Positions 7,867 through 40,335 of a stretch of 40,335 bases of DNA are shown piece by piece. Source of the DNA: Ascoidea asiatica JCM 7603 (Eukaryota > Fungi > Ascomycota). Made by a program: the position numbers and the translations under genes. The stretch covers positions 1,147,831 through 1,188,165 of the forward strand of contig BCKQ01000004.1 of assembly GCA_001600695.1 (NCBI GenBank). Direction: 5' to 3'. The notes below the pieces were generated by a model. The model had not been told where the DNA came from, made no database searches, and saw only the letters and a list, made by a program, of their open reading frames with translations. Numbering within the stretch: position 1 is the first letter of the stretch; each line of letters opens with the position of its first letter.

Positions 7867-9174
7867 ATGTCGAATTCAAATAACAATTTAAGAATGAGAG
7901 ATATAAATACTTTCAATACCAATTATAATGATATCTCAGATAATCCTCCAACAATTCCACCAAATAATTCTCCAGTAATTTCTCAAATTAATTCTGAAAT
8001 AAATACTCAAGTAAATATTCAATTAAATACTACAAAGAATTCTTCCATAAATTCAATTGGTAATTCAAATAATAATTCAATTGTTAATTCAATTGTTAAT
8101 TCAAATAAATTATCACAAAAAAAATCAAATGAAATATTTAATGAAATAATATTTGTATTATTAATTAATAATTTAACAATTATAGATTTTTTAACATATT
8201 TAATAAAATATAATATTCAATCAAATTTAACTAATTTTATAAATTTGCAAAAAATATTATTAAAAAATTTTTTTTATTTAAATTATTCAACCTTAACTTA
8301 TTTTTTAATTAATAGTAAAGATAATGTTAGTATAAATTATAGAAAAAGAAAGAAAAAAAATGATAATAATAATGATAATAAAGAAGTTGAAGATGATGAA
8401 AAAAATGAAGAAGATATGAAGAATTTTAAAGAGATTTTAAATTTAATAATTTTTAAATTTTTAAAAGAATTAAATAAATTAATAAATTTAAGATATTTTA
8501 ATAATTTAAAAAATTTAAAAGATTATAAAATTATAAATAATTATCAAATTTTTTCAAAAGATTTAAAAATTATTTTAAATAAAAATTCACCATTATTATT
8601 TTATTTTTTTAAAAAATTATTATCAAATAAAGAAGAAATGGAGATTGATAATTTAAAATTATATAAAATTTATTTATTTTTAAATATTATTAATAATTCA
8701 AGACATTCAATAATGAGTGATTTTTTACAAAAATTTTTATCAATAAAATTATATTCATTAGGTATTGATAAAAAAATAATAAAATTATTATCATTATTTG
8801 GATTAACATGTCAAAGATCAACTATATATAATTTAATTAATGAATATATTAAATTTAAATCAAAAGAGAAAATAAAAGAAAAAAATGAAAATGAAAATGA
8901 AAATGAAAATGAAAATGATTTAAAAAAAATGGAGATAAATAAATTAAATTTATTATATAAAATTAATTCCAAAGTTAGTTTATTTGAAAATGATTCATTT
9001 TATAATGATATTAGTGATAATAATGATAATAATGATAGTGATGGAGAAGAATTTAAAGAAATGAGTTTAAATGCAAATAAATTTCGATATTTTTATTATA
9101 ATAATATAATGAAGAATACATCAACATATAAAAAAGAGAAAAATGAAAATAAGAAAAAAAGGAAAAAGATTTAA
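7867..9174 (+). CDS. Hypothetical N/K/I/L-rich protein with basic NLS-like stretches; central part resembles the N-terminal region of fungal DUF6589-type proteins
   Basis: 435-aa uninterrupted ORF in very AT-rich DNA; RKRKKK and KKKRKKI; segment SPLLFYFFKKLL...NSRHSIMSDFLQKFLSIKLYSLGIDKKIIKLLSLFGLTCQRSTI. The family resemblance is from memory and was not searched. Confidence 0.7.
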   Translation: MSNSNNNLRMRDINTFNTNYNDISDNPPTIPPNNSPVISQINSEINTQVNIQLNTTKNSSINSIGNSNNNSIVNSIVNSNKLSQKKSNEIFNEIIFVLLINNLTIIDFLTYLIKYNIQSNLTNFINLQKILLKNFFYLNYSTLTYFLINSKDNVSINYRKRKKKNDNNNDNKEVEDDEKNEEDMKNFKEILNLIIFKFLKELNKLINLRYFNNLKNLKDYKIINNYQIFSKDLKIILNKNSPLLFYFFKKLLSNKEEMEIDNLKLYKIYLFLNIINNSRHSIMSDFLQKFLSIKLYSLGIDKKIIKLLSLFGLTCQRSTIYNLINEYIKFKSKEKIKEKNENENENENENDLKKMEINKLNLLYKINSKVSLFENDSFYNDISDNNDNNDSDGEEFKEMSLNANKFRYFYYNNIMKNTSTYKKEKNENKKKRKKI

Positions 9175-33581: not shown

Positions 33582-34033
33582 ATTAATATAATTTGATTTG
33601 ATATTATTACTTCTTTTTTATATAAAGTTATATCATTCAATGAATAAGTTTTTCTCAGTAAAGTCTCTTTTTTTGATCTCACTTCTTTTGATTTCCGACA
33701 GTGGTGATTTGATATCAAATATTAATAAACATGATTAATCAATTAAACACTTCTTGTTTATTGATTATTGATTATTTGAATTTCTCCACTCTTTTTACTC
33801 TTTTTCTTCGTTTCTTTTCAATTTCCATTTTAAAACGGGTTGTTTTTATATTTTTTCATAATTTTGATTAAACACGCATTAAAAAAAAGAATAAACACAG
33901 ATTTAATTTGGTTAATTGTGTTAATATATTTGAATAGACTAAAATTTTTATTAGAGATTGTTTTATTAATCTTTTAATGCTTCCATGAATTGTGTGTTTT
34001 GATTGATAGTTAGTTGTGAAGAAATATTTCAAA

Positions 34034-35091
34034 ATGGGGTTTCCAATAAGAAGAGAAAACAGATTTTATGCAGTTGCAGTTGGTGAGTATATTTCTTTCA
34101 GTTATTTAATTTACTTAGGTTATATTCAATTTATTGAATTAATGGTTATGATTATGATTATACTAATATAATAATTTATATTACATTAATTAATACTATA
34201 TAATAGTTTATATTCATAGTTATATTAAACTAAACTAATTAATATATTAAGTGAGTAAATATATATATATTTAATATAATAGTTTATATTCATAGTTATA
34301 CTAAACTAAATTAACTTAACTAATATAATAATCTATATTAGACTAATTAATTAATATTATATATTAGTTTATATTCATAATTATACTAAATTAAACTAAC
34401 TAATATAATAATTTATATTATAGGACGAGTACCAGGAATTTATCTTGAAAATAAATCATGTCAAGAGCAAGTTCTTCATTTCAGTTATGGAAAATTCAAA
34501 AGATTTGATACAATTGATGAAGCAAGAGATTTTATTGAGAGATATTCAAATGAAACTCCATTGAATTTGTATTATGATTATATATTTGAATCTAAATTAG
34601 AATTCATTTACACAGCTGGATCTGCAACTAATAATGGTACAATATTTGCCAAAGCTGGATTTGGAGTTTATTTTGGTCCAAATGACTCAAGAAATTGTTA
34701 TAGTAGACTTCAAGGACTTCAAACAAGTCAAAGAGCTGAATTATCTGGAGTTCTTCAAGCAACAAGAATAATTTTAAGAAAATTAATTAATTTAAATTAT
34801 AATGAAAAAATTTATCATTATAATATTATTATGGATAGTTTATATACTTTTAATTGTTTAGAAAATTGGTGGAAAATTTGGAATAATCGTAATTGGATAA
34901 ATGCAAATGGTAATCCTGTAAGTAATCAAGATTTAATTAAAGCTGCTTTATCAAATATTAAAAATATTAATAAAATTTATTTTAAAAATGGTCTTCCACA
35001 TCTTGGTTTACAACATATCAGAGGTCATCAAGGTAATCAAGGTAATGAAATGGCTGATAAATTTGCAAGAAGAGCAATTGGCTTAGAGTAA
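34034..35091 (+). CDS. RNase H1 paralog (hybrid-binding domain plus RNase HI domain), 238 aa, exons 34034-34082 and 34424-35091; first catalytic Asp replaced by Ala
   Basis: Spliced N-terminus MGFPIRRENRFYAVAVG|RVPGIY...C..QV....GKFKRFDT..EA..FI is in frame with the 34561 ORF. RNase H motifs: YTAGS (canonical YxDGS), AGFGVYFG, QTSQRAEL, DS, RGHQGNQGNEMAD. Confidence 0.9.
34083..34423 (+). other. Spliceosomal intron (341 nt) containing internal ~80-bp tandem duplications
   Basis: GTGAGT donor, AACTAAC branch at 34394-34400, TAG acceptor at 34421-34423; splicing restores the conserved YAVxxGR motif. Confidence 0.88.
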
Positions 35092-35302: not shown

Positions 35303-35372
35303 TGGCGTGCATAGTTGGTAGCGCGTCTGCTTAGCGTGGAGAAGGTCTCCGGTTCGACTTCGGACTCGTCCA
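35303..35372 (+). pseudogene. Degenerate tRNA-Ala(AGC)
   Basis: 3' half AGGTCTCCGGTTCGACTTCGGACTCGTCCA matches yeast tRNA-Ala(AGC); anticodon AGC at 35333-35335. It has G1>T, a 3-nt deletion at the acceptor/D-arm junction (70 nt total) and a G-G mismatch in the anticodon stem; a T-run terminator follows. Confidence 0.8.
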
Positions 35373-36000: not shown

Positions 36001-37491
36001 ATGTCTCAAATTTCAAATGAAGAATTATATTCAATCTTAGAATTACCAAATGGTACTACAGATATATCATTAATTAAAAAACATCATAAAAAAGTTATTT
36101 TAAAACTACATCCAGATAAATCAAAATCTGAAAATGATACATTATTTAAGAAATATTATCCTGCATATCAAGAACTGATAAATTCTTTATCTAATTTAAA
36201 TAGTACATCAACAACGTCATCACCATCATCACCATTCTGTTCTTCTTCTTCGTCATCTAATTCAAACTTTTCAGATTATTTTAATTCTAGTGAATCTTAT
36301 ACTTATAATTATAGTTATAATTATAACCATTCCAGGAGTAATTTATTCTTCTCTTCGAATTTTTCAAATTTTCATGATACTTCTTACAATACTTATTTTG
36401 ATACCCGAAATAGTACTTCTTATAATGATTATGATGATGATAATTGTTCTGAGACTTCTGATAATTTCAATGAATCCAATTGTTCTAATTACTTTTATGA
36501 TTCTAAAGATTCTGAAGATATAAACGACTCTCAAAATGAGATTAAGTATGATATAAAATCTTCAAATAGAACTATAAATCTTCAGGAAATATTAACTAAA
36601 TATGTTAAGGATTTAAAATTACCTTTTTATTTTATAAAAAATGAGAATTTAAATTTATTAAATGAAAATTATAAAAATAATGGTAATATTCTTCATTTTA
36701 ATCAAGGTATCTCAATTGAAGAAATATTTAATAGAAATCGAATAAAAATTAAAAATAATATTGAAGAAATTGAAAAAATTGAATTAAATGTTGATGAGTT
36801 TTCTATTTTTAATGCACTTAATGTTTTATCATATATTAAACTTGATTATAAACAAAAATTTAGTAATAATAATAATAATGATAATAATACTAATAAAGTA
36901 TATGATCATGGACTTTTAAATTTCCATTTAAAGAAATTTTCTGTTTTTGTTTTGGATATTACTTCAAATTCAATATCTAATCAAGGAAATTGTAATAATA
37001 TCGAGAATCTTAATGTTATGGATGATACTAAATTTCCTAGACTTAATTCAAATTCAAACTCAGTTAAAAATCATTCAGATAAATCTTCTTTACATATTTC
37101 TATAGAAACCAGTTCAATTTGTGATATTTATAAAAAATCTTTTATTATTAGGTCAGATTTATTACATAAAAAATTATTTGAAGAATTAGAAGATAAAAAT
37201 GATATAAAATCAACAATTTTATCAAATGATATTATATTACCTAGTTTTTTAGTTCAAAAAAATATTTCAATGATAGGTGGATATCTTAAAACTACTCATA
37301 GTATTAAATTGGATTGTGTTGATAGATTATATATTATGAGTTCTATGAAATATTGGGATTTGAAAAGACCATTCAATGAAATCTTTGATAAAAAATCATA
37401 TCAAAATTATATTGATAATAATAAAGAGTTTCATGATAATCTAAAAGAAAACGAAAAAGGATTATTTATTATTGATTTTTTTTATTCATGA
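36001..37491 (+). CDS. Diverged J-domain (DnaJ/Hsp40-like) protein
   Basis: LYSILEL...IKKHHKKVILKLHPDK...FKKYYPAYQEL (HPD at 36109-36117), followed by an S/Y/N-rich linker and an unrecognised C-terminal region. Confidence 0.8.
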   Translation: MSQISNEELYSILELPNGTTDISLIKKHHKKVILKLHPDKSKSENDTLFKKYYPAYQELINSLSNLNSTSTTSSPSSPFCSSSSSSNSNFSDYFNSSESYTYNYSYNYNHSRSNLFFSSNFSNFHDTSYNTYFDTRNSTSYNDYDDDNCSETSDNFNESNCSNYFYDSKDSEDINDSQNEIKYDIKSSNRTINLQEILTKYVKDLKLPFYFIKNENLNLLNENYKNNGNILHFNQGISIEEIFNRNRIKIKNNIEEIEKIELNVDEFSIFNALNVLSYIKLDYKQKFSNNNNNDNNTNKVYDHGLLNFHLKKFSVFVLDITSNSISNQGNCNNIENLNVMDDTKFPRLNSNSNSVKNHSDKSSLHISIETSSICDIYKKSFIIRSDLLHKKLFEELEDKNDIKSTILSNDIILPSFLVQKNISMIGGYLKTTHSIKLDCVDRLYIMSSMKYWDLKRPFNEIFDKKSYQNYIDNNKEFHDNLKENEKGLFIIDFFYS

Positions 37492-39199: not shown

Positions 39200-40335
39200 A
39201 TGGATGGAAAAGGATACTATGCAGTTGCTGTTGGTGTGTACCTCTTGAAATATTTAAACGAAATAAAGATTCAATCAGATTTTGAATATCGTTTTCACTA
39301 TCGTTTTTATCTATTTTTTATATTCTAAATTTAATTTAAGTATCATTCCTACTAACTAATTTAATTTAAATAAAGGTCGGAAAACTGGTATATTCCACAC
39401 TCGTGAAGAGTGTCAACAGCAAGTATTAGGTTTTCGTCATGGAAAATGTAAACGGTTTGATTATTACAATGATGCCCAAAATTATTTAATTGAATTTGAG
39501 GGAGTAAATAGGTTTTATAGGGAGGAATACTATTATAATCCTATAAAAAGTATATATGCTCTTGATGATATTAAAGAAGCTGAAGATGAGGAAGATATGT
39601 ATTTTGAGAATTTAAATAAAAGAGATTATAATTATTTTGAGAATTACATATATGAAAAAAATAGTTACAATCAACATAATAAAGACAGTGAAAGTAATAT
39701 AGATAATGATAAGGATAGTGAAGTTAGTGATAAACACACGGATAGTGACAGTTATGACTCAGATAGTGACAGTGATAGTGACAGTGATAGTGATAGTGAT
39801 AGTGATAGTGATAGTGACAGTAATAGTGACGAAAGTGAAAATATCAAAGATACTAAAGATACTGAAAATACTAAAAATTCTGAACACAAAGATAATGATA
39901 ATGATAATGAAGATTCAAAGGGAAAAAATAATAACAATGAAAACAGTCATAATGAAGAAATTTATATTGAAAATAATGACAATAAAGAAAGGGATAATGA
40001 ACATAGTAATAAAAAGGATTATGGTGAAGTCGATGGTAACATCGAAGATAATAGTAAACAGGAAAGTAGCGAGTATAATAATGAAGAAAATGATAAGAAA
40101 AAGGAAGATATTGAAGAGAATTGTGATGAAGAAGATTATGATGAGAAAGATAATAATGGACAAGAAGATATCGAAGAAGATATTGAAGAAGATATTGAAG
40201 AACGATATGATGAAGAAAATTATTCTGGAGAAGATGATAATGAAGATGATAGTGAAGATGATAGTGAAGATGATAGTGAAGATGATAGTGACGATGATAA
40301 TGACGATGATAGTGACGATGATAATGACGATGATA
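39200..40335 (+). CDS. Second RNase H1-type hybrid-binding-domain protein with very long D/E/S/N-rich tract; exons 39200-39233 and 39376 to beyond 40335 (partial)
   Basis: Spliced MDGKGYYAVAVG|RKTGIFHTREECQQQVLGFRHGKCKRFDYYNDAQNYL. Exon 2 has no stop codon over 960 nt to the window end. Not in the ORF track. Confidence 0.87.
39234..39375 (+). other. Spliceosomal intron (142 nt)
   Basis: GTGTGT donor, perfect TACTAAC at 39350-39356, AAG acceptor at 39373-39375; same position and phase as the intron at 34083. Confidence 0.85.

Follow-up and report, generated by a model that had tools for sequence, protein, structure and literature searches.

The RNase H1 gene described here, on the forward strand of Ascoidea asiatica JCM 7603 contig BCKQ01000004.1 (GenBank assembly GCA_001600695.1), encodes a 238-aa protein in which the first catalytic aspartate of the RNase H domain is replaced by alanine (Ala81), and the protein is predicted, with good support, to be nuclease-dead, i.e. 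without RNA:DNA hybrid cleavage. It is somewhat probable that the substitution is a recent loss-of-function (null) change in an old, dispensable, intact RNase H1 duplicate. The gene lies in a window, as we call the whole stretch of 40,335 nucleotides that was analysed (positions 1,147,831 to 1,188,165 of the contig), which is yeast DNA of 23% GC with ordinary housekeeping genes. The GDI1 encoded in the window has 83% identity to that of Ascoidea rubescens and no more than 76% to any other match listed, which points to a relative of that Ascoidea.

Joining the two exons at the predicted splice sites (donor GTGAGT, acceptor TAG) gives 238 codons without an internal stop, and Pfam recognises in the product, above the curated cut-offs, a hybrid-binding domain (HBD; PF01693, E 8e-8) and an RNase H domain (PF00075, E 1.4e-22). 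With PF01693 at its N-terminus and PF00075 at its C-terminus the protein belongs to the eukaryotic RNase H1 sequence family, and the intact two-domain product proposed in a preliminary description of this DNA is borne out. The same description called the linker between the domains unusually short; at 25 aa, against a median of 73 in the HMM alignment set, it is short but not unique, as 7 of the 207 are equally short. The RNase HI fold is predicted to be intact, the AlphaFold model of exon 2 having a mean pLDDT of 89.1 and matching human RNase H1 (2qkb_A) with a Z of 22.6 and an rmsd of 1.7 Å over 148 aligned residues.

Table 1. Coordinates in the window of the RNase H1 gene, its active-site codons and the neighbouring sister gene (X3, one of three DNA runs that contain the region).
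Feature	Position	Strand	Basis
Exon 1, from the ATG through the first base of codon 17 (Gly); its last residues, FYAVAVG, open the HBD	34034..34082	+	Spliced translation; split position as in sister gene
Phase-1 intron, predicted (GTGAGT...TAG), 341 nt long in the window and 104 nt in the X3 contig	34083..34423	+	Sequence, contig comparison
237-nt stretch of 76-nt AT-rich tandem repeat, flanked by exact 22-nt direct repeat	34162..34398	+	Absent from X3 contig
Exon 2: remaining HBD, 25-aa linker, RNase H domain, stop TAA	34424..35091	+	Translation, Pfam
Asn26, replaces HBD Trp (human W43)	34450..34452	+	Alignments
Catalytic RNase H1 domain (residues 77-234), fold predicted to be intact	34603..35076	+	AlphaFold model, structure match
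Ala81 (GCT), replaces first catalytic Asp (E. coli D10, human D145)	34615..34617	+	Translation, alignments, run X3 contig
Glu122 (GAA), second carboxylate, kept	34738..34740	+	Sequence, alignment
Asp154 (GAT), third carboxylate, kept	34834..34836	+	Sequence, alignment
His218 (CAT), conserved active-site loop His, kept	35026..35028	+	Sequence, alignment
Asp228 (GAT), fourth carboxylate, kept	35056..35058	+	Sequence, alignment
Sister gene: exon 39200-39233, 142-nt intron (GTGTGT, TACTAAC, AAG), exon from 39376, open at window end	39200..40335	+	tblastn, Pfam

In alignment the YTAG of the 238-aa protein stands opposite the YTDG of the human enzyme, and the Ala81 column is Asp in all 139 homologues aligned (out of 153 matches, the 14 longer than 420 aa being excluded). 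The columns of Glu122, Asp154, His218 and Asp228 are likewise uniform in 139 of 139, and on an HMM alignment the first-Asp column holds Asp in 274 of 280 RNase H domains, with two gaps and four other residues. The D-E-D-D carboxylate set is incomplete owing to Ala81, and the conserved active-site His is present (H218). The motif TNQRAE reads TSQRAE, the Ser at its Asn position (N118S) being shared with 4 of the 139 homologues. The alignments confirm how the preliminary description had read the active site: alanine at the first DEDD position, the Glu, two Asp and His retained, and Ser in the TN[N/Q]RAE motif. Asp10 of E. coli RNase HI is described as ligating and bridging both Mg2+ ions (PMC8900815), D145 of human RNase H1 is named catalytic in PMC4914116, and human D145N is reported to recognise and bind hybrids without processing them (PMC6027298). 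Because the equivalent Asp ligates both Mg2+ ions and human D145N does not process hybrids, the protein is predicted to be non-cutting, and the earlier claim that it is nuclease-dead stands as a well-supported prediction according to these sources (PMC8900815, PMC6027298). The codon GCT means Ala under any CUG code, and the long ORF of the gene has no CTG. Alternative splicing that would restore the Asp was also considered and rejected on inspection, as an acceptor at 34613-34615 yields xCT, never Asp.

The genome holds other members of the family. In each of the three DNA runs that contain the region (X1-X3) one further contig, of depth 50, 63 and 49, has matches to both 34720-34744 and 34957-34986. 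Manual translation of its flanks in the frame of the gene gives RNYSGSVIGR ahead of QRAE and LNFPPLKIKH ahead of the GH motif. Compared by hand, the former agrees at 7/10 positions with fetched protein P0025, at 5/10 with P0011 of A. rubescens and at 3/10 with the window gene, and the latter at 6/10 with fetched protein P0006 and at 3/10 with the window gene; P0025 and P0011 pair in the catalytic-domain quick tree with support 96. Among 271 fetched proteins the flank motifs were met in only two, both of them RNH1 of other species. As judged from these flanks, a second, more canonical-looking RNase H1 domain is present in the organism of X1-X3, its visible part excluding the first Asp, and this contig could come from a separate RNH1 or from the distal part of the sister gene at 39200. 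That sister gene, 4 kb downstream, was found by tblastn within the window through its HBD at 39375-39488 (PF01693, E 2.2e-8 in Pfam), which is followed by a D/E/N/S-rich acidic low-complexity tract of at least 260 aa that runs off the window. Its intron, with a perfect TACTAAC, lies at the same codon position as that of the RNase H1 gene. The two HBDs are identical at 22 of 44 residues (pN 0.31; pS 0.67, i.e. synonymous sites near-saturated), both are without the Trp, and both have the rare residues Leu34 (2 of 237 HBDs) and Gly39 (5 of 237); they group with support 90 in a quick tree that is weak, with 44 columns and 33 rows. The preliminary description had raised the question of a separate RNH1, and the second domain, with its first Asp outside the visible part, and the sister HBD gene are what was found.

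Codon-position GC of the gene (0.38/0.34/0.09, and 0.04 at fourfold sites) resembles that of neighbouring genes, none of 20,000 shuffled sequences had an open frame, and the marks of an old pseudogene (stops, frameshifts, lost codon-position bias) are absent, all 238 codons being open. In neutral-decay simulations the frame stayed open in 555 of 1000 cases at 0.01 substitutions per site, in 51 of 1000 at 0.05 and in just 4 of 1000 at 0.1, and because of this last figure an old pseudogene is ruled out; a recent release from selection is allowed. The branch of the RNase H domain is 1.54 long, against a median of 0.37, in a quick catalytic-domain tree in which the position of the gene is not settled. 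Of 21 variable positions at which P0011 and P0025 are identical the gene keeps only 6, and it keeps 18 of 20 near-invariant positions, the exceptions being D81A and N118S. The remaining catalytic residues have not drifted after the loss of catalysis, as 4/4 are kept on the long branch; the probability that all four would survive if freed is about 0.007 for the whole branch, 0.08 for half of it and 0.29 for a quarter, rough values from few columns. The fetched proteins include five degenerate RNase H domains, each of which has lost 2-4 catalytic positions and has an intact domain alongside. A carboxylate missense as first hit is just 4-6 times rarer than nonsense, indels ignored. Since the other four catalytic residues and 18 of 20 near-invariant positions are kept on a long branch, the active site looks to have been under selection for most of the history of the gene and D81A looks recent, a dating drawn from 21 columns and the quick tree.

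These observations would fit a history in which an old duplication of RNH1 in an Ascoidea-related lineage was followed, in the extra copy, by loss of the HBD Trp and of most of the linker, with selection as an enzyme persisting. D81A would then have arisen late and been tolerated because another RNase H1, presumably also RNase H2, covers the function. Without the first Asp no two-metal site would form and no hybrid would be cut, the fold being predicted normal, and if the protein is expressed, weak hybrid binding through the basic catalytic domain would be a by-product and not a selected role. Several points sit less easily with a recent null. The redundancy is presumed, as the first Asp of the second gene lies outside the visible sequence and the further contig is possibly the far end of the sister gene; GAT to GCT opposes the AT bias of the genome; and the remaining acids and the His may have been retained for structural reasons. 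A protein that binds hybrids would also be expected to have a basic RNase H domain and the retained contact-aligned residues.

Second in likelihood, though we regard it as unlikely, is that the protein is a selected pseudo-nuclease that binds RNA:DNA hybrids or other duplexes uncut and shields R-loops or competes with the active RNase H1. An open frame with splice signals and a codon pattern resembling that of genes is as expected of such a protein, as is the intact predicted fold, and the architecture of the subfamily is diverging, judging by the sister HBD gene. The catalytic domain is also basic, with a net charge of +10 (136 of 138 homologues have the same or a lower charge), part of which may be AT-driven because the domain of A. 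rubescens is also at +8. T117, W165, W169, N184 and R232 are retained and align with human T181, W221, W225, N240 and R278, which we take to be hybrid-contact positions. The HBD points the other way. Its Trp column is W in 103 of 121 sequences of the homologue alignment, and W in 217 and Y in 18 of 237 distinct motif-selected HBDs, which substantiates the preliminary observation that a conserved Trp is Asn here. At the positions of the contact residues W43, K59 and K60 of the human HBD the protein has Asn, a kept Lys and Arg, and the net charge of the HBD is 0 against a median of +3.

PMC6027298 describes human D145N and fission-yeast D129N as traps for hybrids, and these engineered eukaryotic traps keep an intact HBD, whereas the window protein is natural and has no equivalent of W43, a residue whose change to Ala in the human HBD is reported to compromise hybrid binding (PMC10639055). 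If the 238-aa protein binds hybrids at all, it is predicted to do so more weakly because of this loss. Against a selected pseudo-nuclease stands also that, despite the long branch, only a single one of the 5 catalytic positions has changed. Among the matches listed there is no orthologue with the same substitution, a comparison that is no test, as close relatives are absent from it. A close orthologue, or the protein of the second gene, was not found in a search that gave 3 matches from 140 candidates, among the best 150 of 5959, all of them at 47% identity or less, or among the best 120 of 753. No close orthologue was found in 125 stretches either, where 3 loci of 36-38% identity all have the Asp, and the ESM Atlas gave ordinary RNase H1 clusters only. 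Of the functions offered in the preliminary description, a relaxed duplicate is supported by the other family genes in the genome, and an R-loop binder, protector or dominant-negative has no positive evidence: only one of five catalytic positions is changed, no orthologue with the change was found among the matches listed and the HBD Trp is lost.

A wider version of the binder hypothesis, somewhat more doubtful, takes both window genes together as a small family of non-cutting RNase H1-derived nucleic-acid binders, in both of which the HBD lacks the Trp and is joined, in the one, to a dead but basic RNase H domain and, in its neighbour, to a long acidic tract. Their role would be to shield or mark R-loops, or to control the active RNase H1. 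It is improbable that RNase H1 activity is decaying family-wide in the species, with the other copy dead too and RNase H2 doing the work. The first Asp of the second gene is outside the visible sequence and the HBD Trp is missing in both window genes, as such decay would have it, but the flanks of the second gene are nearer to canonical yeast RNH1 (P0025 and P0011) than to the window gene, and YTDG is kept in the RNase H1 of A. rubescens. Residual cleavage through a rearranged metal site (e.g. with Mn2+) would explain why E122, D154, H218 and D228 are all kept, but it is very improbable, given that Asp10 ligates both metals (PMC8900815), that no homologue in the alignments has an otherwise complete site without the first Asp and that the homologue alignment revealed no new acidic residue at the conserved active-site columns.

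As the change is of a single base, the codon was also compared with the runs, of which only X3 covers it. Contig 17 of X3 (4794 nt, depth 37) covers 33700-34161 and 34399-34847, where the cover ends, with 0 differing letters; holes in X1-X3 prove nothing, and the window may itself derive from X3, which would then not be an independent second sample or strain. A base error at GCT is unlikely because this depth-37 contig matches the codon, which answers the sequencing-error concern of the preliminary description with the proviso that X3 is possibly the window's own source. The X3 contig is without 237 nt of the intron, skipped between two exact 22-nt repeats, which leaves 104 nt, and the donor and acceptor are present in both intron forms. 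Short contigs that match the repeat at 34162-34398 have a depth of about 1450-2100, roughly 40 times the 37-63 of single-copy contigs. The 237-nt stretch is either a misassembly or a strain-specific insertion, and for the repeat itself a dispersed repeat, organellar DNA or misassembly may be offered. That the GCT codon stems from an error in assembly or sequencing, or represents a single allele at a heterozygous position, is the least probable explanation of all: the intron difference suggests that the local assembly is imperfect or the strain different, but the X3 contig has no other letter over the codon and there is no alternative contig there.

Compared with eukaryotic RNase H1 (human RNASEH1, PDB 2qkb/2qk9/6vrd; A. 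rubescens ODV64413.1, 39% identical to the 238-aa protein), the window protein has the same layout of HBD and RNase H domain and keeps E/D/H/D, and it differs in Ala for the first Asp, Asn for the HBD Trp, the 25-aa linker and the long branch, its gene belonging to a family that has at least two or three members in the genome. Most eukaryotes are described as having a single HBD-bearing RNase H1 copy, although duplicates are known, with four genes in C. elegans and at least three human pseudogenes (PMC1950709); against this single-copy norm (PMC1950709) the window alone carries at least two HBD-bearing genes. Extra or tandem copies in other yeasts were seen among the matches in Spathaspora sp. 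JA1 and Diutina catenulata. The same residue is replaced in the engineered traps human D145N, S. pombe Rnh1 D129N and E. coli RNase HI D10A (PDB 1jl1), the last being the same D-to-A change as in the window protein. Degenerate RNase H modules (Diutina catenulata CAN3369021.1, Terramyces KAJ3274725.1, P0005, P0056) are natural RNase H1-type domains without catalytic residues, but these have lost 2-4 positions and have an intact domain in the same protein, while the window gene has lost one and stands alone. The fungal Ssd1/Dis3L2 pseudonucleases, described as repeated in origin, are a precedent for a fungal nuclease paralogue turned nucleic-acid binder, and according to the same source they differ in fold and in that the dead state is conserved across species there (PMC8097288).

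As a recent null in a spare copy, the gene would be a modest example of duplicate turnover in a usually single-copy gene. If it were instead a conserved and expressed binder, it would be a natural endogenous R-loop protector in budding yeast, a counterpart of the engineered D145N trap, and would make it testable whether cells stabilise hybrids with a dead RNase H1; the assay for this is simple, as the Ala81 substitution corresponds to one in standard laboratory use. The literature searched, which excludes most subscription papers, yielded no account of RNase H1 in Ascoidea, nor of a naturally dead RNase H1 paralogue from a budding yeast.

The surroundings of the gene yielded further observations. 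At 35309-35364 (+) lies a degenerate tRNA-like sequence with anticodon AGC (Ala), followed by T runs, which at 15.1 bits against a gathering score of 29 is probably a tRNA pseudogene; ARAGORN does not call it, and at low threshold gave only noise among the matches listed. Between the two RNase H1-family genes a 496-aa ORF (36001-37491, +) has an N-terminal DnaJ domain and a Ser/Asn-rich stretch, its C-terminal part having no Pfam match; the gene for the 238-aa protein is flanked by an amino-acid permease gene and this DnaJ-domain ORF. A 435-aa ORF at 7867-9174 (+) also has no Pfam match. Among the fetched proteins, P0074 (Diutina catenulata), P0080, P0056 and P0005, from unrelated eukaryotes, have tandem RNase H domains, one degenerate and one intact. 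In the long ORFs of the window CTG is nearly absent (0-1 per recognisable gene) and fourfold sites have 0-15% GC; Ascoideales are reported to read CUG as Ser (PMC13148404).
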